Assembly: GCA_025832235.1 (NCBI GenBank) | Contig: GCA_025832235.1_3649.1 | Direction: 5' to 3' (one strand) | Length of the DNA stretch: 64,000 bases | Source of the DNA: a phage | Shown: piece after piece, positions 3,543 through 37,893 of the stretch | Layout: the number at the start of each line of letters is the position of its first letter | How positions within the stretch are numbered: the stretch's first letter is position 1 | Made by a program: the position numbers and the translations under genes | Notes under the pieces: model-generated | What the model saw: only the letters and a program-made list of their open reading frames with translations | What the model was told of the DNA's origin: nothing | Databases searched by the model: none

Positions 3543-3833
3543 ATGATGGATTTAGTTCTGGACACTGATAACACCGGAGCGTTTAAAAAGGATGGTGTAA
3601 CAAGCGTTGACCAATCCTTCCCTGCCAAGATTGACTCAAAATGGACCTACAAGTTTGATGGAGAGATCTTCGCAAATGATGAGAAGGTTGTAGATGCTGC
3701 AGCCATTTTGAACGCTCTAGGGTACGACCCTGTGAATTCTTTGATCAAGGATCCTGTTGAGTTTGCAGAGTATGTTCGAAAAATGGCAGATCTTGCTGTG
3801 GATATTTTAAAAACTATCGACAACAATCTGTAA
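3543..3833 (+). CDS. hypothetical protein
   Basis: ORF track. Confidence 0.55.
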   Translation: MMDLVLDTDNTGAFKKDGVTSVDQSFPAKIDSKWTYKFDGEIFANDEKVVDAAAILNALGYDPVNSLIKDPVEFAEYVRKMADLAVDILKTIDNNL

Positions 3834-3839
3834 AAACTG

Positions 3840-3868
3840 TTGACACAACGCTTCAGATTTAGTATCAT
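3840..3868 (+). promoter_or_regulatory. sigma70-like promoter (TTGACA-N17-TATCAT) for the HPF-like gene
   Basis: TTGACA at 3840-3845, 17-nt spacer, TATCAT at 3863-3868. Confidence 0.5.
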
Positions 3869-3876
3869 TGTTTTCA

Positions 3877-3897
3877 AAGAGGGTTTGGTTCCCTCTT
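3877..3897 (+). promoter_or_regulatory. 5'-UTR stem-loop (AAGAGGG-7-CCCTCTT) followed by CTTT; possible dual terminator/leader hairpin
   Basis: Perfect 7-bp inverted repeat between promoter -10 and SD of 3916 gene. Confidence 0.45.
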
Positions 3898-3915
3898 CTT
3901 TAAAAGGAACACGTT

Positions 3916-4233
3916 ATGCAAATTGAAATCACTGGCAACGTAGAAATCACTGAAGGTATGGTGTCTTTCATTTCCAACAAAATGTCTAAACTGGAGCGTT
4001 TGCACCCCTCTGCCAACTATGCACGTGTGAGTGTAAAAGTTGAAAATGATCACCAGGAAGTTATGGCGTTCATTTTTGACAATTCTGGAAAAGAAGTTAT
4101 TGCCAAGGCTAAAGGTAGTGATGCTTACGAGGCAACTGACCGTATGGTAGATGTTGCAGCACGTCAGCTGGCTAAATGCGGTGGAAAGAAAGGTAAGGGG
4201 AAAGGCAAAGTAAAGATTGACTTTGGAAAATGA
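3916..4233 (+). CDS. hpf: ribosome hibernation-promoting factor / YfiA (RaiA) family homolog
   Basis: 105 aa; MQIEITGNVEITEGM...KLERL...VSVKVE...AKGSDAYEATDRMVDVAARQLAK parallels E. coli HPF (MQLNITGNNVEITEAL...KLEQY...VLKVE...AEGQDMYAAIDGLIDKLARQL) recalled from memory; Lys/Gly-rich tail; own promoter and SD. Confidence 0.75.
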   Translation: MQIEITGNVEITEGMVSFISNKMSKLERLHPSANYARVSVKVENDHQEVMAFIFDNSGKEVIAKAKGSDAYEATDRMVDVAARQLAKCGGKKGKGKGKVKIDFGK

Positions 4234-4999: not shown

Positions 5000-5332
5000 A
5001 TGAAAGTACGCTTTATTGGTGAAACAATTCCTGTGCATCTCCGGTCTCCTGAGGATTCTGCAGATCTTGCATCTCAAAAGGCGAGAGGTTATGATAAGAA
5101 AGTAACCTCAACCGATGTAGTGCTTGAGGCTACCAGTCTACCTGACCCTGCTGCATTCTTTAATCATTATGGGTACTATTTCAGCAATCTGATGAATATC
5201 GGTGAGCTTGTGTTTATTAGTGGTGGAGAGATTGTTAGCAAGCTTGGCGGCGATCCAGATGTCTTTCATGAAACCTGTCCTTTTGCATTTGTGGTAGGTT
5301 CAGATGTGGAAGTTATTGAGGAGGTGCGGTAA
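5000..5332 (+). CDS. hypothetical protein (C-terminal ...VGSDVEVIEEVR)
   Basis: ORF track 4973..5332; in-frame ATG at 5000 avoids overlap with upstream gene. Confidence 0.5.
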   Translation: MKVRFIGETIPVHLRSPEDSADLASQKARGYDKKVTSTDVVLEATSLPDPAAFFNHYGYYFSNLMNIGELVFISGGEIVSKLGGDPDVFHETCPFAFVVGSDVEVIEEVR

Positions 5333-5727
5333 TGGTAAGCCTATACCGTGTTGAGTATAGCTCAGATACTGTATACAACGTAAGAAGCAAAGATCGCAGC
5401 GACAGAGTGCAAGAAATGTATGTTCTTGCCGACAGTCCGTTATCTGCAGCGTTCAAGGCAGGGGCTCTTGCATCTCGTTGGAAATTTGAAGGGGGATCTT
5501 TCTATGAAGAAACCCTTGAAGATTCTGTTGTTATTTCTTCTGTAGAGGTTTCAGACGACTACGAAGGGAAAAAGTTCGTAATGCGGCACCCACACAGCAA
5601 CATTGCGTACTACTGGGATGTTCTGAACAACGAGTGGACCCCAGATCTTCAGAAGGCTACTGTGCTAACACCGTTTTTGGCAGATAAGTTCCCACCAGAA
5701 GGTAATTTATCCGCACTGTTTCAGTAA
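5332..5727 (+). CDS. hypothetical protein, family B paralog (YYWDVLNNEWTP)
   Basis: ORF track; paralog of 3127..3525. Confidence 0.6.
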   Translation: MVSLYRVEYSSDTVYNVRSKDRSDRVQEMYVLADSPLSAAFKAGALASRWKFEGGSFYEETLEDSVVISSVEVSDDYEGKKFVMRHPHSNIAYYWDVLNNEWTPDLQKATVLTPFLADKFPPEGNLSALFQ

Positions 5728-9723: not shown

Positions 9724-11220
9724 CACACAATATTAGCTGCCCGGCTAAAGTGCTGGAAGCACCTATAACACATCTTTCAACTAAATTTCCTACCACCACA
9801 ATCACTTACCTCCCATACATGACTGTTTGCTTGTTTAGTGAGCAGTCATGCCTTGACATTCTTGCCTATCCTGATAAAATTAAGTTCTTCTCTTTTCTTT
9901 TACCGAGTAATTCGGGTTTTCTGTTCTCTTCGGTTTGAAGGGGTATGGAGATACACCTGAGTGAACAGGGTGAACAACCGAACCATTGGCTATGGCATTA
10001 GCATGGCGAAGCGGACGGGTGACGAAAGAGGGGCCGGAGGACACCAGTCACTGCCATATGATATATGGGTGATAACCTGAAGAGTCTGAATAAGTGTTTA
10101 AGTACCAGTCAGAGGAAAAGGTGAATGGTAGCCGAAGGGGGAGGGGGGTTTCTTGTATCTTTAATTTGTATATTATGTATACACTTGTAAACCAATTTCA
10201 TCTGAATCTGTTTACCACACAAAGTGGATAGAGACAAATATTACCTATTAAACTTGAATTATTTATAGAAAATACCACAACACCACTTAAGTCTTTGATT
10301 TTACACACAAATCTTACAGATATTCAACCTCCATATTTAACATACCTGTAACATATTCCATACTCTACCTGTCTGATCAATCTACCCAACCACATCCTTC
10401 ATATTTTCCCTGTCTGTACCACCCCTGCCCCGCCGGGAGTCCCGTCATATCTGGCTTTCCAGCAAATATCACACCCACAAATATCATTGCCTGAAGAGGG
10501 TTTCATCCCATAATACATGCCTTACCTGAAGAGCGCTTCATACACCACGTAAATTTTTTAATTGACCTGCAATTTTCCCGTCATGACCCCCTGCCCCGCC
10601 GGAGAGGTTGGCTTTTCCCACACAGACCTGAAGAGTCAGCCAGAAATATCTGAACAGGCCCAATTCTACCACGATTTTGACCTGACCTACAGGAGTGCTG
10701 CCAGGCGGACGAAATGGGAATACTTCTCATTCTTATAACAATTCTCAAATATCAAGGCAGTGAGGCAAATTAATAGGCTAGGCCGTTCACACAGTGGCAC
10801 AACATTTGCAATCTATTTTGTGTGGGGGAATGAGAATACATATCATTGTGAGAACCATTATCATTACGGGCAATTTAACATAATACCCATTATGCGCACC
10901 ACTGGCGATACATACAGGGATTGATAACATGAGTTACTGTTTACGCATATAACAATTATATTTATTACTATTTGTGTGGGATATAGTTAGCAGCCGATAG
11001 ATTAGATATTGACCTGCGGACTTCTGACCGTCTAGACGTCTAAACGCCCACACAGCAAGGGTTATACATACATCGCTGAATGTAAACAGGGCCGCAAAAA
11101 TGCTACCATACCAGTTTGTAAATTTTCAATGCAGCACTTGACAAAGAGGAGAAAAACTTGTCTGACACCTTATACACTTTCGATACAATAACGACTGTTA
11201 TTATTTCATGTTTCACTGTT

Positions 11221-11295
11221 CACGTATAGATTGTTCCCGCATAGACTGTTTACGCCTGGATAGTTTACACCTTGACAGTTTACGCATAGATGATA
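11221..11295. repeat. five tandem 15-bp iteron-like repeats (consensus NNCGCATAGAcTGTT)
   Basis: cacgtatagattgtt / cccgcatagactgtt / tacgcctggatagtt / tacaccttgacagtt / tacgcatagatgata in perfect 15-bp register. Confidence 0.6.
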
Positions 11296-11297
11296 AG

Positions 11298-11544
11298 CCA
11301 TGCCATTCGTTTGCATGAAAACAATTAGCAAGTTAACAATTAACAAGTTAATAATATATGACATAATATAAAAGCAGGGCAACTATTATTAGATCTATAG
11401 TTGCCTTGCTTATTATGTCATGATTAACTGAATATAAGGCAACTATGATCTGATTAATAGATTGCAGACAAACTATCACGGGGGTGATGGTTACTGCTTT
11501 TATATTATGTCGCGACTCCGTCGCGCCATGCCATTCGTTTGCAT
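11298..11544. repeat. 19-bp direct repeat CCATGCCATTCGTTTGCAT (11298-11316 and 11526-11544) bracketing an 18-bp inverted repeat
   Basis: Exact direct repeat; inverted arms GACATAATATAAAAGCAG (11360-11377) and CTGCTTTTATATTATGTC (11494-11511); inner palindrome GGCAACTAT/ATAGTTGCC (11378-11405). Confidence 0.55.
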
Positions 11545-13722: not shown

Positions 13723-13938
13723 CTATGCTGTACGCTCAACTATAACAACGGTTTGGGGGATCTCCCCCTCCACCACTAGTAAGGCCTTTTTCTGCGTGAT
13801 AGATATCTTTACCCGTTGCAGCGTGGCGGTGAAGTCTTTCATTTCGTCACGCGGTGTTTTAGTGCAGTACCAGATCTCAGGCTTGCCGATCTGTAAGTTG
13901 CGTAAAAATTCTGTTTTGCCTGTTTTGTTAGTGATCAT
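13723..13938 (-). CDS. hypothetical protein
   Basis: ORF track. Confidence 0.5.
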   Translation of the reverse strand: MITNKTGKTEFLRNLQIGKPEIWYCTKTPRDEMKDFTATLQRVKISITQKKALLVVEGEIPQTVVIVERTA

Positions 13939-13947
13939 TTGTCAACC

Positions 13948-14052
13948 TCACCCGATACCGTTGGAAGACAAGATCACATTAGCCATGGTTGCAATCAGGC
14001 CAATACCCAGGGCAATAACCAGGATCACCGCATCAATTAATTTCTGTTTCAT
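13948..14052 (-). CDS. small hydrophobic peptide (34 aa)
   Basis: Hand-translated MKQKLIDAVILVIALGIGLIATMANVILSSNGIG; SD GAAGAGGAAAAC. Confidence 0.3.
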   Translation of the reverse strand: MKQKLIDAVILVIALGIGLIATMANVILSSNGIG

Positions 14053-14142
14053 TTTGTTTTCCTCTTCTTGTTCCAGGTGGCGGACCATTCCACCGCCTTA
14101 TGTATTATGCTTTGTAAGATGGTTGTTTGTTTTCAAACTATT

Positions 14143-14322
14143 TTAACGATAATCATCGTACGCTTTATTAACCTGGCGAATATAACATTCAAAAGCCAGA
14201 TCAATAGATTTATATTCACGGATATACTCACCATAGGAAACCACATACATTTCTATAGCTTCCTCATATGCGAGGAGAATAGAATCCAAGCCTACGATCT
14301 CAGTCTTTGCAATAATAGCCAT
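14143..14322 (-). CDS. hypothetical protein (59 aa)
   Basis: Hand-translated ORF just under the track cut-off; SD AAAGAGGATAAAAATC before ATG. Confidence 0.4.
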   Translation of the reverse strand: MAIIAKTEIVGLDSILLAYEEAIEMYVVSYGEYIREYKSIDLAFECYIRQVNKAYDDYR

Positions 14323-14369
14323 GATTTTTATCCTCTTTGTGGTTGGTGGGGCTTGCCCCTTTGATTTAT

Positions 14370-14397
14370 ATACTACAGTCTTATATGGTCATGTCAA
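14370..14397 (-). promoter_or_regulatory. sigma70-like promoter (TTGACA-N16-TAGTAT) followed by 5'-UTR hairpin at 14348-14359
   Basis: Plus-strand TGTCAA 14392-14397; hairpin GGGG-CTTG-CCCC. Confidence 0.4.
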
Positions 14398-15127: not shown

Positions 15128-15188
15128 TTTATGTGATTATATCGCTGTAGGCCCTGCTAGGGGCCTTATTTTGCATCATTTGCCGGAA

Positions 15189-15494
15189 CTATACAGAGAA
15201 AACATCGTTCACAATAGCGATCACAATGCCGCCCACCTTGTCACGGTCAACAATGCACAAATCACCATAGATCATGTGGTAGTCTGGATGATCTTTCACG
15301 GAATAGTCAATGAGCGTTTTCTTGTCGTCCAGCTTTGTAACTTCCATTCTCATAACGATATGAGAATCATCAAAGGCATTATTCCGAAAAGTCATAGCCT
15401 GACCACCAGGGCACCCAGTGATCTCCACTTCCACACCATCTACGATCTGACCATCAAAGAAATAAAGATTATTAGCCTGGATAAACATGATCAT
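15189..15494 (-). CDS. hypothetical protein
   Basis: ORF track; SD AAGGAG. Confidence 0.55.
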   Translation of the reverse strand: MIMFIQANNLYFFDGQIVDGVEVEITGCPGGQAMTFRNNAFDDSHIVMRMEVTKLDDKKTLIDYSVKDHPDYHMIYGDLCIVDRDKVGGIVIAIVNDVFSV

Positions 15495-15535
15495 TACTCC
15501 TTGTTAACTGCGTGGTATTTTAACAGGGTTTAAAT

Positions 15536-15579
15536 TTACTTTATTGATGGCCCTAGAGTCAAGGCCATCTAAAAATAAA
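15536..15579 (-). promoter_or_regulatory. conserved 45-bp element, copy 1: hairpin GATGGCC...GGCCATC with TTGACT in the loop, then TAAATT (-10-like)
   Basis: Near-identical to copies at 19248-19292 and 19868-19912. Confidence 0.5.
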
Positions 15580-15581
15580 TT

Positions 15582-15782
15582 TTACAGGCCTACAATCTCT
15601 TTGATTCGTTTAACCGCCGCCTCAGCGCCTTGGGGGTAAAAATTATGGTAACCAATCACGCGAGTGATACTAATCGCCGTTTGATGATCTTCATAGTCGC
15701 CCTTGAAGATTTCTTGACCGTCAATCAGCACGGCAATTTTTTCTTCTTTTTTGAAGTTAATAACGCGGATATTGTTGCTCAT
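15582..15782 (-). CDS. hypothetical protein
   Basis: ORF track. Confidence 0.55.
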   Translation of the reverse strand: MSNNIRVINFKKEEKIAVLIDGQEIFKGDYEDHQTAISITRVIGYHNFYPQGAEAAVKRIKEIVGL

Positions 15783-16040
15783 TTTTGTTTCTCCTTTCTG
15801 GTTTTTGTGTTGGTGGGGATGTTTCCCCGTTGATTGTTATTATCCATATTCAGGACCGGATTGCAACACCCCGGAAGAAAAATTTTTTGAAAAAAGTTAG
15901 GCCCCCAGGGATCGGGGGCCGTTATCAGTTACTTACAGAGATAAAATACATCCCTACGCCTAACAATATTTCAAGGGCGATGATCTCAAGCCATACCATA
16001 ACACGGCGCACCTTATCGGTGCGGGGCTTATCCTTGGGTG

Positions 16041-16286
16041 TCATCGTCTCCCCCTTCCCTCCTGGTAGTAGTGACGTGGTTTACAATGGCCCCCAGGAGT
16101 ACCATCACCACGCACATCACAAGAAAAATTATCTCCGCTGTTGTTCGATCCATTGTTATAAAATTCCTCAAGATCAGGCCTGAAAATAAAGCGTTCGTTA
16201 TTGAATCCGTCACGCCAGGCGGCTGGCTTCAAATCTTCACTAAAGGGATTAATTAACGTGGCATTATTTAAACGGTTGGCCCACAT
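16041..16286 (-). CDS. hypothetical protein
   Basis: ORF track 16041..16304 (TTG); ATG at 16286; overlaps 3' end of 16264..16635 in another frame, so uncertain. Confidence 0.35.
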   Translation of the reverse strand: MWANRLNNATLINPFSEDLKPAAWRDGFNNERFIFRPDLEEFYNNGSNNSGDNFSCDVRGDGTPGGHCKPRHYYQEGRGRR

Positions 16287-16635
16287 ATTTTCTATTCCTC
16301 TCAAATAGGCGATCCGCCTCAGTTAAACATATCTCATGGGCTTGATCTCTGGTTTTAGCTTCATCGAAAACTTGTTGTGCAAGGCTGCAACGCAAGGAGA
16401 CCGGAAGATCACTATAATAGGCGTTGACAAACGTTTGAGCGTCGTACAGGTCTGAAAATACTTTACCCTTTCTATTATTCCCCTTGTCAACAATTGCAAG
16501 GATAACCAATACAATAGTTGCAACCACCCCCAGGAAAATAGATATAATAAACCATAAAAAGGCGGATCTACCCATCTTGCCAGCGATCCAGGCGTTAAAC
16601 AAGGCAACCAATACAGCCAAAATAATAAATTCCAT
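16264..16635 (-). CDS. hypothetical membrane protein (two predicted TM helices)
   Basis: ORF track 16264..16668; ATG 16635 follows AAAGAGG; TM-like MEFIILAVLVALFNAWIAG and FLWFIISIFLGVVATIVLVILAIV. Confidence 0.55.
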   Translation of the reverse strand: MEFIILAVLVALFNAWIAGKMGRSAFLWFIISIFLGVVATIVLVILAIVDKGNNRKGKVFSDLYDAQTFVNAYYSDLPVSLRCSLAQQVFDEAKTRDQAHEICLTEADRLFERNRKYVGQPFK

Positions 16636-16699
16636 TCTATGTACCTCTTTTGCAGTTCTGTTTAACAATAAGGCGGCAAATATGCCGCCTGTTACCTGA

Positions 16700-17080
16700 T
16701 TAAAAATTATCGCCGTAAATCTTTCCGCTTTCTGCCCACACCACCACGCGGGGCATACTATCCCACACGTCTTGTTTTAGATTGAGCGCGTGCAATTCTT
16801 CGGTGGTGCCCATACCTGGCACGGGCTGATTGTATACTGCAAAACGACCACCCGCATAGTCATAGGCCAGAGTTAAATCACACTGGATCATCTTTTTGAT
16901 CATGGCATTAAGCATGGCATTAGCCGCATACTGATCACGTTTTAAAGGCAACTCTTTGATTAGTTTGCGATAGTTTTCAATGTGATCGCACACTGTTTCA
17001 CGTGGAAGATCTTTCATATCCTCGCGAAAGGTAACCAGGTTAAACATGACGGTGTCAATAGCTTTAGTAGTGTTTTTCAT
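16700..17080 (-). CDS. hypothetical protein
   Basis: ORF track 16700..17113; ATG 17080 follows AGAGGAAAAC. Confidence 0.55.
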   Translation of the reverse strand: MKNTTKAIDTVMFNLVTFREDMKDLPRETVCDHIENYRKLIKELPLKRDQYAANAMLNAMIKKMIQCDLTLAYDYAGGRFAVYNQPVPGMGTTEELHALNLKQDVWDSMPRVVVWAESGKIYGDNF

Positions 17081-17171
17081 GATGTTTTCCTCTTTGTTTT
17101 GTGTGGGGGGCAAACGTCTTGCCCCCTTGAGTTTTAATATAGCAGGTTTTTAGGTTATTGCAACACTTTAT

Positions 17172-17795
17172 TTATGAAAAAGTCATCTCGCCATATTCAT
17201 CCACATCAAACCGCCAATCATTGGCCTCGATAAGGCCGATCAGGTTTTCGGTAGTGAATTGTTCAAGATAGGCTTGCTCCAGGTCTACGTAAACCTTGCG
17301 GGATAGCTCCCGTACCGTCTCGGTGATCAGCTCTTCCAGCTCTTCAACTTTATCCTCTTGCTTGGTGGTCAGGTCTAGCCAATTGGTATCGATGCACCCG
17401 CCTATTGTGTTTTCGTGGTGATAATGGCTAAACGGGATACGCTCAACGCTTGCGGATAGCTCGCCATCGTGCATTGTGCCGAACAAGTGACGAATTGAGC
17501 GGAATTTAGTCAAAGACTTGACTTTACGCAAGAATTTTTCTAAGTTTACATTTTCAGCGCTAATTGACGCGCCGTCACCCTGGCACCAAAAGCCGGACCA
17601 ATGTACATCTGTATCTTCAAGCCCGTACTCTGGAAAAACATATTCTTTATAGTATTCAATTACACTTTCTGCAAAAAAGTTATCCCCGCTGTGTTCTTCT
17701 CTTTCGCGGACCATTTCAACGGCTTTTTCTTTTTGTTCGTCGGTCAGCACGTCGAAAGATAAATTGTAACCTGTGGTAATGTTAACGGTGGTCAT
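17172..17795 (-). CDS. hypothetical protein
   Basis: ORF track; own promoter and hairpin; no motif recognised. Confidence 0.6.
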   Translation of the reverse strand: MTTVNITTGYNLSFDVLTDEQKEKAVEMVREREEHSGDNFFAESVIEYYKEYVFPEYGLEDTDVHWSGFWCQGDGASISAENVNLEKFLRKVKSLTKFRSIRHLFGTMHDGELSASVERIPFSHYHHENTIGGCIDTNWLDLTTKQEDKVEELEELITETVRELSRKVYVDLEQAYLEQFTTENLIGLIEANDWRFDVDEYGEMTFS

Positions 17796-17823
17796 GATAT
17801 TTTCTCCTATTTTCTTTGTTGGT

Positions 17824-17842
17824 GGCGGGAAGTTTTCCCGCC
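17824..17842 (-). promoter_or_regulatory. 5'-UTR stem-loop (GGCGGGAA-3-TTCCCGCC)
   Basis: 8-bp GC stem a few nt downstream of the predicted -10. Confidence 0.5.
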
Positions 17843-17852
17843 TGTGTGTTTA

Positions 17853-17880
17853 AGTATACTTATCGAGATTTACTTGTCAA
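17853..17880 (-). promoter_or_regulatory. sigma70-like promoter (TTGACA-N16-TATACT)
   Basis: -35 overlaps last codons of upstream gene 17870..18130; -10 TATACT. Confidence 0.55.
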
Positions 17881-18130
17881 CACTATTTTTTAAATTATTG
17901 TGGCGCAAAATGTTTAAAATCTCTTCAACGTCATCAACACGGCGGCAATTTTTAAACGCTACCAATTGCCCCATGATTTTAATCACTGGGCGGCCTTGCC
18001 AGTGCCCCTGAAGAAAGCGCGCCTTGACTTTATCGGTGGAACTATCACGCCACCAAATAGCCTTGTTGTTGCAGTAGTAAAAATTATTCAGGATAACATC
18101 AACTTTATCAAAATTTTTTAATTTACGCAT
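17870..18130 (-). CDS. hypothetical protein
   Basis: ORF track. Confidence 0.55.
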   Translation of the reverse strand: MRKLKNFDKVDVILNNFYYCNNKAIWWRDSSTDKVKARFLQGHWQGRPVIKIMGQLVAFKNCRRVDDVEEILNILRHNNLKNSVDK

Positions 18131-18535
18131 GGCGTTTACTCCTTTCTCTCTTTGATGTGGTTAGTATAGCTAACCTGTTGACGATGTCAATGATATTTTT
18201 AACGCCATAAAACGGCCCTGGGCGATGTTTTCAGGTTAAAGGGGGCGATTGCATAGGTGGGGGCCTTTTTGGCACTTACAGGGCCAACCAGGGGCGCTAT
18301 TCGTAGGATAGAAATAAAAAGCCCCGCACAATGGCGGGGCGTTGGTTGTTATTTGTCTTTATGGCGGTACCGTTCCGCCTGTCGTTCACGTTCCAAAAGC
18401 AGGCCCGGCAGTTTACGATCATAATGATTCCGCCAGATCTTCCCAAATCTTTTTGGCTTATTCAGTTTATTGTTCCGCTGGCGGCGTTCCGGCAGCTCTT
18501 CGGAATCATGAGATCGCTTTAAAATCTTTTCAAAA

Positions 18536-18883
18536 TTAATCTTCATATATTCCCCCCTTGCTAACTTCAATATTGGCCTGAATAGCCCGGATACGGCGCT
18601 TTATAACTTCCTGATCTGTGTGATCGTATCCCCAAAAGTCTACAATTTTTGCGCCCCCAGCTTCCAGGCGGTACAGTGTTTCCTGCATTTTGTAAGCCGG
18701 GATCGGTCGCGGTGTTACTTGGTCACCTTCTTTATTTTTATACTTTATAATATAATCTTCATTATCGTTGAATGTCCAAAATGGATATTCTGCAAGGGCG
18801 GTACTTTCCTTTTTATCCTGGATCTTGTTTACAATTAAAGCCGTAGCAATAGCGCCAATAATAAAACTAGCCCCGCTGATCAT
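18536..18883 (-). CDS. hypothetical membrane-anchored protein
   Basis: ORF track 18536..18946; ATG 18883 follows GAAAGGAG; N-terminal TM-like ISGASFIIGAIATALIV. Confidence 0.55.
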   Translation of the reverse strand: MISGASFIIGAIATALIVNKIQDKKESTALAEYPFWTFNDNEDYIIKYKNKEGDQVTPRPIPAYKMQETLYRLEAGGAKIVDFWGYDHTDQEVIKRRIRAIQANIEVSKGGIYED

Positions 18884-18958
18884 GTACTTTCTCCTTTCAT
18901 TGTGTTGATAAACTATCTTTATAGATGGCCCTGCTACCAGGACCACCGAAAAACCAGC

Positions 18959-19204
18959 TTATTTGACGATACCGACAAAACAGATCCCGCCTTCCCCTAT
19001 ATAGGCGATATCGGTAATTTGATAATTTGTCAAGATCCGCGTGTTCAGATCATTAATAAAATCGGTCATCGCGTTGGTGTAGTTGTCTTCCGTGTCTAAG
19101 GCATAATCCCAGGTGTAAACCTTTTTACGTCCGAAGCCTTTTACCATGATACGGGCGCTTTTGGTGTTGGTAGGGGCATAATATTTGGTAATTAGTGCGG
19201 CCAT
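18959..19204 (-). CDS. hypothetical protein
   Basis: ORF track; SD GAGGAG. Confidence 0.55.
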   Translation of the reverse strand: MAALITKYYAPTNTKSARIMVKGFGRKKVYTWDYALDTEDNYTNAMTDFINDLNTRILTNYQITDIAYIGEGGICFVGIVK

Positions 19205-19247
19205 TGTTTTAACTCCTCTGTATTAGTTCAGTGTTAACAGTGTAAAG

Positions 19248-19292
19248 TTTACTTTATTGATGGCCCTGGAGTCAAGGCCATCTAAAAATAAA
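19248..19292 (-). promoter_or_regulatory. conserved 45-bp element, copy 2 (hairpin with TTGACT in loop + TAAACT)
   Basis: Immediately downstream of stop of 19294..19635 and about 45 nt upstream of 18959..19204 start. Confidence 0.5.
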
Positions 19293-19293
19293 T

Positions 19294-19635
19294 TTACTCG
19301 TTTTCTTCCAGTTCTGCAAGCTCTTCTTTCACTTCTTCAAGCTCTGTTTGCAATTCCTGGTATTCTTCATCGTCCTCAATATCCAGGCTGTCGATGTAGT
19401 CGCTAAATCCGCAGCGGTAAGCGATAGGATCTAACTCCTTGAGGATACGCGACGGAAGAAAAGAAATGTTTCCGATCATAATTTCGCCATAGATCTCGTC
19501 TAACCATTCATCATAGTTTTCGTCGTACTTGTCCTCGTCGATTTCAAAATTATCGATCTTGTTCTCAAGGTCTGCGATCTGTTTTTTCAGCGCGGCGATC
19601 TGCATGGCTTTTTCTGTGGCGGTCATAGTAGTCAT
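19294..19635 (-). CDS. hypothetical highly acidic protein
   Basis: ORF track; about 30% Asp+Glu with acidic C-terminal tail; own promoter/hairpin. Confidence 0.55.
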   Translation of the reverse strand: MTTMTATEKAMQIAALKKQIADLENKIDNFEIDEDKYDENYDEWLDEIYGEIMIGNISFLPSRILKELDPIAYRCGFSDYIDSLDIEDDEEYQELQTELEEVKEELAELEENE

Positions 19636-19660
19636 AGTGTTTTCTCCTTTTGTGTGCTTT

Positions 19661-19673
19661 GGGAAGTTTTCCC
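19661..19673 (-). promoter_or_regulatory. 5'-UTR stem-loop (GGGAA-3-TTCCC)
   Basis: Same hairpin family. Confidence 0.45.
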
Positions 19674-19686
19674 GTTTACGTGTTTA

Positions 19687-19714
19687 AGTATACTGATTTA
19701 AGTTAGCTTGTCAA
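19687..19714 (-). promoter_or_regulatory. sigma70-like promoter (TTGACA-N16-TATACT)
   Basis: Plus-strand TGTCAA 19709-19714 and AGTATA 19687-19692. Confidence 0.55.
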
Positions 19715-19834
19715 TTAAAAGTTTAAGAAAAATTTTGCTACACCGTTGGCACTACCCATCAACATTTGCGCCAGGATGTAACCAATGATGCAAACGATAA
19801 TAGTTACCTTTGTGTGCTGGCGTGTAGTACTCAT
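19715..19834 (-). CDS. small hydrophobic peptide (39 aa)
   Basis: Hand-translated MSTTRQHTKVTIIVCIIGYILAQMLMGSANGVAKFFLNF; SD AAGGGGG; preceded by element copy 3. Confidence 0.4.
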   Translation of the reverse strand: MSTTRQHTKVTIIVCIIGYILAQMLMGSANGVAKFFLNF

Positions 19835-19867
19835 CTTTAAGCCCCCTTTCCGCTCAACTGTGGTTAG

Positions 19868-19912
19868 TTTACTTTATTGATGGCCCTGGAGTCAAGGCCA
19901 TCTAAAAATAAA
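19868..19912 (-). promoter_or_regulatory. conserved 45-bp element, copy 3
   Basis: Directly downstream of stop of 19914..20309. Confidence 0.5.
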
Positions 19913-19913
19913 C

Positions 19914-20309
19914 TCAGTAAGTTTTCAGTACTTTCCCGTCCAACCTGTCTAACTGAATCTCAATAGCTGCAGAAAACCTATTGTAAACCACATCGCCCAG
20001 GGAGTCCAGCCAATCTATGACGTTATACACCTGCTCTTTATTCTTGCAAGTCCGGATCCGTTTCATTACGTAAGACGGATCAATATTAGCGCTCTCGTTG
20101 TTGTGGTCATGCGCCTGGCCTGCTGCGCTAGTTATAGATTTTACAACCACCTGAAAGGGCTTTAAGGTGCCTTTTGCGTTCATCTCACGCGCTTTCGCGG
20201 CGCGGTTGTTGTATGTTACACAACGGCGGCAAATGTTGACCAAATGCATATCAATAATTTTTTCATCGTTTGCCAGTTCGTTCATGATGCGGCGTACGTT
20301 CTTATTCAT
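19914..20309 (-). CDS. hypothetical protein
   Basis: ORF track; SD AGGAAAAAAG. Confidence 0.55.
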   Translation of the reverse strand: MNKNVRRIMNELANDEKIIDMHLVNICRRCVTYNNRAAKAREMNAKGTLKPFQVVVKSITSAAGQAHDHNNESANIDPSYVMKRIRTCKNKEQVYNVIDWLDSLGDVVYNRFSAAIEIQLDRLDGKVLKTY

Positions 20310-20329
20310 GATCTTTTTTCCTTTGTGTT

Positions 20330-20348
20330 GGCGGGAAACATTCCCGCC
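20330..20348 (-). promoter_or_regulatory. 5'-UTR stem-loop (GGCGGGAA-3-TTCCCGCC)
   Basis: Same stem as 17824-17842 with a different loop. Confidence 0.5.
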
Positions 20349-20358
20349 TTTTGTGTAT

Positions 20359-20386
20359 AGTTTACTTGAATTTTGCAGCGTGTCAA
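20359..20386 (-). promoter_or_regulatory. sigma70-like promoter (TTGACA-N16-TAAACT) abutting an A18 tract
   Basis: Plus-strand TGTCAA 20381-20386; homopolymer immediately upstream on the minus strand. Confidence 0.5.
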
Positions 20387-20389
20387 TAA

Positions 20390-20407
20390 TTTTTTTTTTT
20401 TTTTTTT
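20390..20407. repeat. 18-nt homopolymer (T on plus, A on minus strand)
   Basis: Uninterrupted T run; overlaps stop codon of 20406..20804. Confidence 0.7.
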
Positions 20408-21716: not shown

Positions 21717-21957
21717 GTTATTCTGCAAACGAGAATGATTATCATTCAAAATTCTAAATGAGAACTCCTCGCATTTAATAAATTTAATTAGCATGCTAAT
21801 TACCTTCCGTAACAATCTCCTATAAAATAGTGCCCCATAAAATATTCCCATATAGAAATTTTAAAAATCCATTTCTGAAAACGAAAAATCGATTTCGTCC
21901 CCAAAAATTTCAGGTCGAGAGCTGGAACGATTTCCAGAAAATCCGATTCAGAAAACG

Positions 21958-22039
21958 AAAAACAGATCGAGTACTGAGAAATTTGTCGAGAAAAATTTTC
22001 AGAAAATCAGGTCTTTGAAATGAAAAACAGATCGAGTAC
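21958..22039. repeat. 17-bp perfect direct repeat AAAAACAGATCGAGTAC (21958-21974 and 22023-22039)
   Basis: Exact repeats 65 bp apart; related GAAAACGAAAAATCGAT at 21877-21893. Confidence 0.55.
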
Positions 22040-22351
22040 CGAAAGAGATGTGCCGAAACTTTCTGATAATAATGGACTTATTGTTATAAAAGGTCAGAGG
22101 TAAGCTGGGAAAGTTCTGGTAGAAGGGTGAGAGTATGTGCGGAAAATCTGGAATAGTGACTTAAAGTACGGTGCGAACGATAGAATGAGCAGCACATCTT
22201 ATCGTGCCTGTCTTGAAAAATCCATTTTAGTTTTCGATCCATTTTCTGATTTTCTAAGAATTTTAAAATATCTGGCCCGGTGAAATATCAAAAGGAGGAA
22301 ATCCATTTTAGAAATCCTCCTTACACTTGATATGCCAGGGATTTTCAAGTA

Positions 22352-25829: not shown

Positions 25830-25891
25830 TTTTCAGATCTCCTTATACAAAAATGCCCCACCCTTTCGGGCAGGGCTATGTTAGTTATGTG

Positions 25892-37088: not shown

Positions 37089-37872
37089 TAATTCTGCTCC
37101 TTACTACAGGCTCGTTTGCTAGGAATACGGCTTTTGCCCAGCCACGTGGTGTGAGGCTTCGAATCATCTTCGTTCTTGCACTCTTTCCACCCAGCTTGGC
37201 GTGTTGCATGGAATACCCGCTAACCGCGTCAACTATTTGCGGGACAGGTTTTGTGGCTGGGATTATAAATCCATTACCTATCCAGCCGCAAGTTATTTTT
37301 GGATAGGCATCACGTGGAGCTATAAATTCAGGAAACCATGGGTTTACATCATCTTCCGGTAAATACCCGCCATAATCCGAAGGGTGAAAACGGTAATCAG
37401 GTTTGCGCCACAGTGTGGACATAACACCCACAGGATTCTCTACATGCCACGGGCAATCGTAAATCTCTCCCAGCTCTTCCGCAACCCGAGCATCCTTTAC
37501 AGCATTAATTTGGATCATGGGGTCCTTAGCCAGCTTTTTCTTAAAATGTGCAGCACCTGATACCGCTAAATGCGTGCACGGAGGAAATGCAAGAATAAAA
37601 TCTGGAGCCGGATACATGCAAAAAGTTTCCTGAGGGAACCACGGGTCAATCCAATAGTCCACATAGTGAATGTTGGGATGATCGGTGATCACCTCTGCAT
37701 AACTGCCGTGATCAGCGCCTTCTGCATTAAAGCACAGGCACAGGTACCCAGCTTTTGCCCAGTCAATGGCTGCACCACCAGACCCGTCAAATAGACTCCA
37801 CACAACACCTTTGTGGTAGTGTTCTTTGTAGATAAATTTCAATTTGCTGTCTCCTAATGCAAAAAGCCCCAC
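37078..37872 (-). CDS. DNA (cytosine-5)-methyltransferase-like protein (tentative)
   Basis: Motif I-like LFDGSGGAA, motif IV-like FPPCTHLAVSGA (PCT instead of PCQ), motif VI-like HVENPVG, in canonical order; only 264 aa. Confidence 0.4.
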   Translation of the reverse strand: MGLFALGDSKLKFIYKEHYHKGVVWSLFDGSGGAAIDWAKAGYLCLCFNAEGADHGSYAEVITDHPNIHYVDYWIDPWFPQETFCMYPAPDFILAFPPCTHLAVSGAAHFKKKLAKDPMIQINAVKDARVAEELGEIYDCPWHVENPVGVMSTLWRKPDYRFHPSDYGGYLPEDDVNPWFPEFIAPRDAYPKITCGWIGNGFIIPATKPVPQIVDAVSGYSMQHAKLGGKSARTKMIRSLTPRGWAKAVFLANEPVVRSRINGK

Positions 37873-37893
37873 CCTTTCGGGCAGGGCCTAGTG

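Follow-up and report, generated by a model that had tools for sequence, protein, structure and literature searches.

The DNA stretch analysed here comprises 64,000 nucleotides (nt) of a phage contig (GCA_025832235.1_3649.1 of assembly GCA_025832235.1; the whole stretch is referred to as the window) and belongs to an rV5-like Vequintavirus. It is matched by 123 phage records, with phage BP9 on top at 96.3%. The part from 12 to 27 kb is a minus-strand early region composed of small genes and many canonical TTGACA-16/17-TATACT promoters. Four of its intergenic gaps hold members of a repeated hairpin element, which lie on the minus strand like the genes around them. Judged from its sequence, this family consists of four conserved sense-strand RNA hairpins, three of them with promoter boxes, and is not categorically new: it is a cassette resembling the promoter/stem-loop elements of T4-type phages (PeSLs), located in a new phage lineage.

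The three canonical copies share an inverted-repeat core of 24 nt, GATGGCC-TTGACTCYAG-GGCCATC, which occurs without mismatch at 15546-15569 (copy 1), 19259-19282 (copy 2) and 19879-19902 (copy 3) and gave no match in 100 dinucleotide shuffles. The core is part of a 47-nt unit, TTTATTTTTAGATGGCCTTGACTCCAGGGCCATCAATAAAGTAAACT, spanning 15533-15579 in copy 1 (2 mismatches), 19246-19292 in copy 2 and 19866-19912 in copy 3 (0 mismatches in both), and a repeat search stretched the family to 57 nt at 86-100% identity (repeat family D1). Within the units, TTGACT at 15557-15562, 19270-19275 and 19890-19895 is followed at 18-nt spacing by TAAATT in copy 1 (15533-15538) and by TAAACT in copies 2 and 3 (19246-19251 and 19866-19871). 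Each unit starts 1-2 nt past a stop codon, the upstream open reading frames (ORFs) ending at 15582, 19294 and 19914, and the next ATGs, at 15494, 19204 and 19834, are found 31-41 nt beyond the unit end; the element thus fills the gap that separates the upstream stop codon from the next ribosome-binding site and ATG. Copy 3 follows a 131-amino-acid (aa) ORF (19914-20309; phrog_13245), copy 2 precedes an 81-aa ORF (18959-19204; phrog_3199), and copy 1 separates a 66-aa ORF (15582-15782; phrog_12347) from a 101-aa ORF downstream (15189-15494; phrog_7366). All six proteins flanking the element copies fall into PHROG families without known function. A first-pass annotation, made from the letters of the window, had described three near-identical minus-strand elements at these places, beginning 1-2 nt past a stop codon and shortly before the next ATG. 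Both statements are borne out, with no copy expected by chance, and a consensus scan likewise recovered the TTGACT and TAAACT/TAAATT boxes at 18-nt spacing at all three sites.

The same annotation had overlooked a fourth, diverged paralog, which was found by listing all early intergenic regions. Copy 4 (18906-18964) is located between the 81-aa gene and a gene with its ATG at 18883, and its lower stem contains the stop codon of the 81-aa gene (18959-18961). It has in common with the other copies the 3’ half, CAGGGCCATC-TATAAAG, and a T-run, while its 5’ arm reads GGTGGTCCTG, its loop GTAG, and the -35 box is lost, with CTGGTA at the homologous position. A covariance model comprising both subfamilies identified exactly four members in the window, which scored 71-78 bits in sense orientation (71.5, 77.6, 77.3 and 76.7 bits for copies 1 to 4) and 29-39 bits in antisense. 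Searching the window and four relatives with this model for further members returned none with E<1 beyond the four known loci, which together span 4.4 kb.

Conservation in related phages, to which the first-pass annotation had tied its proposal, was found: the element is present in 121 phage records, nearly always at three sites in each genome. In IMG/VR, JGI metagenomes and GTDB genomes, scans with degenerate patterns detected it in Vequintavirus-like contigs only; the few remaining matches were chance hits within coding sequence of metagenome-assembled genomes with high GC content.

Hairpin fold in the sense RNA

In the sense RNA, the canonical element is predicted to fold into a two-part hairpin. 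Its G/C-rich upper stem of 10 base pairs (bp), GAUGGCCUUG/CAGGGCCAUC, is closed by the tetraloop ACUC and includes pairing of UUG with CAG through one U.G wobble. Below it, an internal loop of 2x3 nt (UA/AAU; 19283-19284 and 19256-19258 in copy 2) leads into an A/U lower stem of 8-13 bp, in which AAAGUAAAYU, that is, the -10 box, forms pairs with UUUAUUUU and with the stop codon upstream. The full hairpins extend approximately over 15532-15582, 19242-19297 and 19857-19918, with folding free energies of -21.5, -24.3 and -26.4 kcal/mol and z scores against shuffled sequence of -4.66, -6.49 and -6.50 for copies 1, 2 and 3, respectively; the upper stem alone contributes -16.3 kcal/mol. The 7-bp inverted repeat that the first-pass annotation had placed around TTGACT is real, but the stem is larger than stated there, since the actual upper stem has 10 bp and is continued by the lower stem. 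Rfam covariance models gave no matches at the elements, and the sole weak match between 12 and 24 kb was unrelated (E=0.26).

The fold is stronger in the sense than in the antisense strand, the latter reaching only -16.6 kcal/mol in copy 2. Copy 4 adopts the same two-part hairpin, with the upper stem GGUGGUCCUG/CAGGGCCAUC and the loop GUAG. Its sense fold has a free energy of -24.4 kcal/mol and a z score of -3.62, whereas the antisense z score of -0.70 was equalled by 42 of 200 shuffles. All three changes in the 5’ arm of copy 4 are compatible with pairing in the sense RNA (A-U to G.U, C-G to U.G and U.G to C-G). Among orthologs of copy 4, which comprise five loop variants, pairing is kept despite stem changes, and the lower stem includes a CG/UA compensatory pair. 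As copy 4 keeps the hairpin without a -35 box and folds in the sense orientation only, this indicates that an RNA-level function has been conserved.

To describe variation within the family, 62 canonical copies (39 unique) were gathered from 20 GenBank loci and from metagenome contigs, and per-position variation was recorded for the first 50 of them, from 20 genomes. In these 50 copies the 14 core stem bases are invariant. Variation is confined to the following sites: position 1 of the unit, which is its outermost base in the lower stem; positions 3 and 4 of the tetraloop; the internal loop on either side; one C-to-U change by which G-C becomes G.U; a singleton G-to-U change; and position 5 of the -10 box. 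Four of the eight variable positions are among the nine unpaired positions (hypergeometric P=0.03). Taken alone, the three canonical copies are nearly uninformative with respect to covariation, with 16 of 20 pairs invariant; one lower-stem pair covaries between copies (GC 23, AU 8, GU 1, unpaired 7). The comparison becomes informative once the fourth paralog is added. In the joint alignment 98.6% of the cells are paired, and 100% in the upper helix, compared to at most 55% in slid control alignments. The covariation score of 0.285 exceeds that of shuffled alignments (0.200+/-0.013) and was reached in none of 500 shuffles. Moreover, every one-sided stem change across paralogs preserves RNA pairing. 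The case for constraint on the RNA derives from this paralog comparison and from the strand asymmetry. At the level of sequence, these data favour constraint on the sense RNA and speak against a symmetric DNA operator.

Cassette exchange at the element copies

Comparison of the early region with 17 relatives revealed numerous insertions and deletions, some of which involve the elements directly. Four genomes, namely ECP32, phiWec189, magaca and an IMG/VR contig, carry two canonical copies each and lack exactly the 621-bp repeat-to-repeat unit from copy 3 to copy 2. In the window, the cassette between these copies (19293-19865) carries a 39-aa ORF (19715-19834), the canonical promoter P192 (19687-19714) with a hairpin in the 5’ untranslated region (5’-UTR), and a 113-aa ORF (19294-19635). 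The junction in the four unit-less genomes consists of the gene upstream of copy 3, one chimeric element, and the leader that follows copy 2. In trees computed from either flank, the four genomes are not united in one branch. The most direct comparison is that of magaca with naswa: their flanks are 99.98% and 99.88% identical, and the repeat-to-repeat unit is the only difference. Moreover, paralogous copies of one genome share minor loop alleles in 7 pairs, where 2.4 would be expected (permutation P=0.004, with related genomes), which suggests gene conversion between copies.

A cassette is also common to different subfamilies. The phi92-like Justusliebigvirus KKE7M and the window have 468 nt in common (95.5% identity), between unrelated flanks. 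The shared stretch reaches from the -35 box of P192 (19714) to the -10 box of copy 2 and hence ends inside the element. Altogether, the near-identical copies are shown by genome comparison to behave, at sequence level, as recombination points at which small gene cassettes are added or removed. This role and the resemblance to PeSLs are additions to the three interpretations offered in the first-pass annotation (structured promoter, RNA processing site and binding site for a phage regulator).

Other short patches of 75-93% identity link KKE7M to the window (3760-4095 to 16714-17049, 5279-5472 to 14141-14334, and 11122-11401 to 13725-14003), which suggests that early-gene cassettes have been exchanged repeatedly between the phi92-like and rV5-like subfamilies. 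The promoter P186 (18163-18190) suggests that other promoters are cassette borders as well.

Promoter boxes, related systems and proposed function

The boxes TTGACT-18 nt-TAAACT/TAAATT of the three canonical members match the sigma-70 consensus at 9 of 12 positions, with a spacer of 18 rather than 17 nt. An A/T-rich tract, (A)AATTTATTTTTA, is located immediately upstream in all copies, and its version in copies 1 and 2, AAATTTATTTT, appears to fit AAAWWTWTTTT, the consensus for the distal half of the UP element in E. coli. In the GenBank record of phage Gotham, the boxes of copies 2 and 1 are labelled 'promoter predicted by PhagePromoter'. The intergenic regions at the elements measure 79-89 nt, similar to those with neighbouring canonical promoters. 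The C of TTGAC (loop position 2) is the sole position that discriminates promoter from structure; it is invariant in the 62 canonical copies, and copy 4 has C or T. An analogous arrangement exists in phi92-like phages, where a hairpin of unrelated sequence with a 12-bp stem encloses TTGACA-17-CATAAT (11/12) directly after a stop codon. In KKE7M (5465-5530) the stop codon and the -10 box are part of the A/U lower stem of this hairpin (-27.5 kcal/mol, z -5.7), and the 121-nt region holding it matches 132 phage records. In the Certrevirus paper, by comparison, the promoter consensus is a different one without a hairpin. The proposal of a structured promoter is plausible: boxes, position, A/T tract, the PhagePromoter call and the phi92 analogue speak for it, and the consensus match taken by itself is not above chance. 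Weighing these sequence features, we lean slightly towards promoter activity of the elements.

The known elements that come closest are the PeSLs of T4-type phages. In these, the space from a stop codon to the ribosome-binding site of the following gene is occupied by a sigma-70 promoter, an A/T-rich tract and a stem-loop. PeSLs cluster in variable regions, where they mediate insertions, deletions and mini-circles, and in one PeSL subclass the stem-loop overlaps the -35 box (PMC2839356, PMC4122927). In the elements described here, a pair of -35- and -10-like boxes, an A/T tract and a stem-loop are likewise found in the gap that ends at the ribosome-binding site and ATG of the following gene. 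They recur within an early region that holds small genes without known function and varies between relatives, and they flank cassettes present or absent in close relatives, marking exchange points. Five of six sequence-level PeSL features were found; the sixth, the -35/-10 boxes, is represented by a 9/12 match only. There are also clear differences. The elements belong to Vequintavirinae and not to T4-type phages, they show no sequence similarity to PeSLs, and they number only four copies at fixed loci, compared to dozens of PeSLs. Their hairpin is not a short polyG/polyC stem but a two-part structure that reaches from the A/T tract down to the -10 box and encloses the whole promoter, their spacer is 18 nt, and in one member the hairpin lacks a -35 box. 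For PeSLs, promoter and terminator activity and the formation of mini-circles have been measured by reporter assays and inverse PCR (PMC2839356), whereas the present description of the elements is based on sequence.

With respect to the RNA, the closest parallel is offered by phage T7. Folded with the same tool, its RNase III sites R0.3, R0.5, R1, R1.1 and R1.3 display an upper stem of 9-13 bp, a loop of 3-5 nt, an internal loop and a lower stem of 5-9 bp; for the elements, the corresponding parts are an upper stem of 10 bp, a tetraloop, an internal loop of 2x3 or 1x3 nt and a lower stem of 8-13 bp. The elements conform to the general shape of such sites, an irregular hairpin of about two turns in which some 10 bp separate the internal loop from the apical one. 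In both cases the hairpins sit between cistrons of a polycistronic early message that host RNA polymerase transcribes. Downstream of copies 3, 2 and 4 in the window, a canonical intrinsic terminator is first encountered on the minus strand at 18321-18340 (GCCCCGC...GCGGGGC followed by TTTTTATTT), which implies that the hairpins of these copies sit within one early transcription unit of about 2 kb starting from P194 (20359-20386). Promoters are annotated right beside the T7 RNase III sites; they adjoin the T7 hairpins, whereas in the elements the boxes are inside the hairpin, and sequence homology is absent. Given the T7-like shape, an RNase III site or a barrier at the 3’ end is a reasonable mechanism for the hairpin, although its assignment to RNase III specifically, made by analogy, is possible rather than likely.

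Intercistronic stem-loops that stabilise the mRNA of bacterial operons, for instance the repetitive extragenic palindromic (REP) hairpins of malE-malF, follow a stop codon within an operon; they can shield the cistron upstream from 3’ exonucleases and bring about differential expression. The element resembles them as a stable hairpin just past a stop codon; these hairpins differ in lacking promoter boxes and in not being phage-specific repeats. By its T7-like shape, the hairpin of the element is probably an intercistronic processing or stability signal. Of the three interpretations in the first-pass annotation, the RNA processing site is the best supported as far as an RNA structure is concerned, given its stability, its sense bias and the pairing across paralogs, whereas the cleavage it implies is suggested by the shape.

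Taking these lines of evidence together, we consider it probable that the elements are composite promoter/stem-loop cassettes of the gene-variable early region, similar to PeSLs and working at three levels. At the RNA level, a read-through transcript from the upstream gene would fold the unit of about 50 nt into the two-part hairpin. As its T7-like shape suggests, this hairpin would most likely mark the cistron boundary, either by blocking 3’ exonucleases or by being cut by RNase III, and the upstream message would gain a stable 3’ end uncoupled from the downstream message. At the DNA level, TTGACT-18-TAAAYT in three of the four copies would probably serve as an early promoter for the sigma-70 polymerase of the host, from which the following small gene is transcribed anew. 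At the genome level, as comparison shows, the copies provide short homology through which alleles are exchanged and the 621-bp cassette is deleted or inserted, and one of them borders the cassette shared with a phi92-like phage.

A bolder version of this interpretation assumes that the same roughly 50 bases are dual-coded, serving as a sigma-70 promoter with an A/T element upstream in the DNA and as an RNase III-type processing hairpin in the RNA, and that this is a convergent design in early regions of large coliphages. In that case, read-through RNA would be cleaved and stabilised at the very sites from which new transcription starts. If dual coding were true, the occurrence of a hairpin around promoter boxes in two unrelated families, rV5-like and phi92-like, would point to a convergent design principle, and the element would be more than an imitation of PeSLs. 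We regard this version as rather unlikely.

Several observations weigh against the composite promoter/stem-loop interpretation. Promoter matches of 9/12 quality are common by chance (43 found versus 25.2+/-5.5 expected in 12 kb), and the element is not among the 33 promoters and 20 terminators of the rV5 genome paper (PMC3606486). A literature search for a Vequintavirinae transcriptome found no study. One member of the family, copy 4, is a hairpin without a -35 box, and since every conserved promoter base also occupies a stem or conserved loop position, conservation cannot separate promoter from structure. The compared genomes are all more than 90% identical, so that most stem pairs, being invariant, are uninformative and the sequences are not independent; covariation thus comes from few pairs in related sequences. 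With regard to recombination, copy 3 of Gotham has lost 5 nt and with them both its right arm and the spacing, which implies that a single copy is dispensable. The two deletions of the evolved strain rV5_ev146 (window 20317 to 19822 and 18399 to 12918) were considered as repeat-mediated events and rejected, as they end away from the elements, and this genome therefore lends the recombination role no support.

The alternative that survives best is that the elements are processing or stability hairpins only, that their boxes are incidental, and that downstream genes are expressed by read-through from P194, P192 and other promoters. The retention of the hairpin but not of the -35 box in copy 4 fits this view, as do the structural role of all promoter-like bases, the 9/12 match with an 18-nt spacer, which is not significant, and the absence of the element from the rV5 promoter list. 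Canonical promoters are also located upstream of each copy with no intervening terminator. Nevertheless, incidental boxes do not readily explain why, at three loci, TTGAC precedes TAnnnT on the coding strand at a distance of exactly 18 nt, downstream of an A/T-rich tract and 31-41 nt before a start codon, or why the C of TTGAC is invariant in the canonical copies and varies between C and T in copy 4. The 11/12 promoter enclosed by the unrelated phi92-like hairpin and the PhagePromoter calls at element sites argue in the same direction, and we consider a purely structural role unlikely.

Alternatively, the hairpin could act as a terminator or attenuator that stops or lowers upstream transcription and thereby insulates each small gene. 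The PeSL stem-loop 211/210 reduces read-through as strongly as rrnB T1 (PMC2839356), and the hairpin of the element, with its stable upper stem, is located directly past a stop codon. Its anatomy is not that of a terminator, however. The sequence 3’ of the hairpin is AAUAAAGUAAA (AAUAAAG...), and a U-tract is absent both after the upper stem and after the full hairpin, which excludes a canonical intrinsic terminator. Concordantly, the element hairpins are not among the 25 terminator-like sites detected by a terminator scan of 12-24 kb, a region in which canonical terminators exist, and the GenBank record of phage Alma, in which predicted terminators are annotated, has none at the elements, which leaves the attenuator part of the PeSL likeness hypothetical. 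Furthermore, the gene that follows copy 4 lacks a good promoter and hence depends on read-through. Termination or attenuation is therefore improbable as the main function of the hairpin.

The remaining proposal of the first-pass annotation, a binding site for a phage regulator, would make the element a regulated promoter in which the 7-bp inverted repeat around the -35 box is the operator for a dimeric phage or host regulator, switching genes off or on. What makes this attractive is the perfect 7+7-bp inverted repeat centred on the -35 region, invariant in 62 copies, whose arms occupy promoter regions normally free of sequence constraint. In copy 4, however, the arms are asymmetric as DNA (GGTGGTCC versus the complement GATGGCCC) and are paired in the sense RNA via G.U, with the antisense strand unfolded. 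A poor DNA palindrome that is a good sense-RNA hairpin disfavours an operator, as do the one-sided stem changes across paralogs, all of which keep RNA pairing, and the continuation of the structure into a lower stem with compensatory changes. The centres of the arms are 17 bp apart and would thus not face one side of the helix. Domain searches for a regulator or DNA-binding domain in the six flanking proteins found none and returned only sub-threshold coiled-coil Pfam matches. We consequently judge an operator to be very improbable.

Promoters of the N4 virion RNA polymerase, with a 5-7-bp stem and a 3-nt loop, are extruded from supercoiled DNA and read by the phage polymerase, and they share with the element the association of a promoter with a DNA hairpin; an identity with this type is ruled out by the sigma-70-type boxes and the 4-10-nt loop of the element, and the constraint on its sense RNA is a further difference. 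For rV5, a virion RNA polymerase is not reported, and the genome paper infers reliance on host polymerase (PMC3606486).

rV5-like phages are common candidates for therapy and biocontrol. If the composite interpretation is true, the PeSL strategy, in which a single short sequence terminates or processes one message, initiates the following one and provides a recombination handle for swapping small accessory genes, would not be limited to T4-type phages. The family is a compact test case for overlapping DNA and RNA codes, with copy 4, a hairpin without a -35 box, as a natural control. The element repeats also explain the recurrent presence/absence polymorphism of the 621-bp unit in Vequintavirus and the cassette common to phage subfamilies. 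In practical terms, they represent predictable deletion points when such phages are engineered or passaged.

Other features of the early region

Most other early intergenic regions are organised differently from those with elements and consist of a canonical promoter, a G/C-rich hairpin opening the 5’-UTR, a CAACACAAAG-like tract and a ribosome-binding site. Such regions were observed on the minus strand at 17827-17880, 19661-19714, 20310-20405, 17081-17171, 15783-15924 and 14323-14393. The promoter regions of P185 and P192 (17827-17880 and 19661-19714) are a repeat at 80% identity (repeat family D3), and a run of 16 A at 20390-20405 (minus strand) is located immediately upstream of P194.

Three degenerate direct repeats of about 65 nt with 62-100% identity occupy 21851-22054, a stretch with few convincing ORFs that may correspond to the 'non-coding' box of the rV5 map. 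Terminator-like hairpins at 25850-25876 and 37861-37887, GCCCCACCCTTTCGGGCAGGGC, are 96% identical and 12 kb apart, and are the t213 and t232 of the rV5 paper. At 15176-15196, 12 of the 17 compared relatives have an additional segment of about 364 bp with a 351-bp gene, which is absent from this genome.

Among the GenBank records matching the region, 17 are called 'Campylobacter phage', the best five listed being 92.8-93.9% identical. One of them, A147, has a title marked UNVERIFIED and is classified as Vequintavirus. The 'Campylobacter phage' names are probably mislabels or contaminants.

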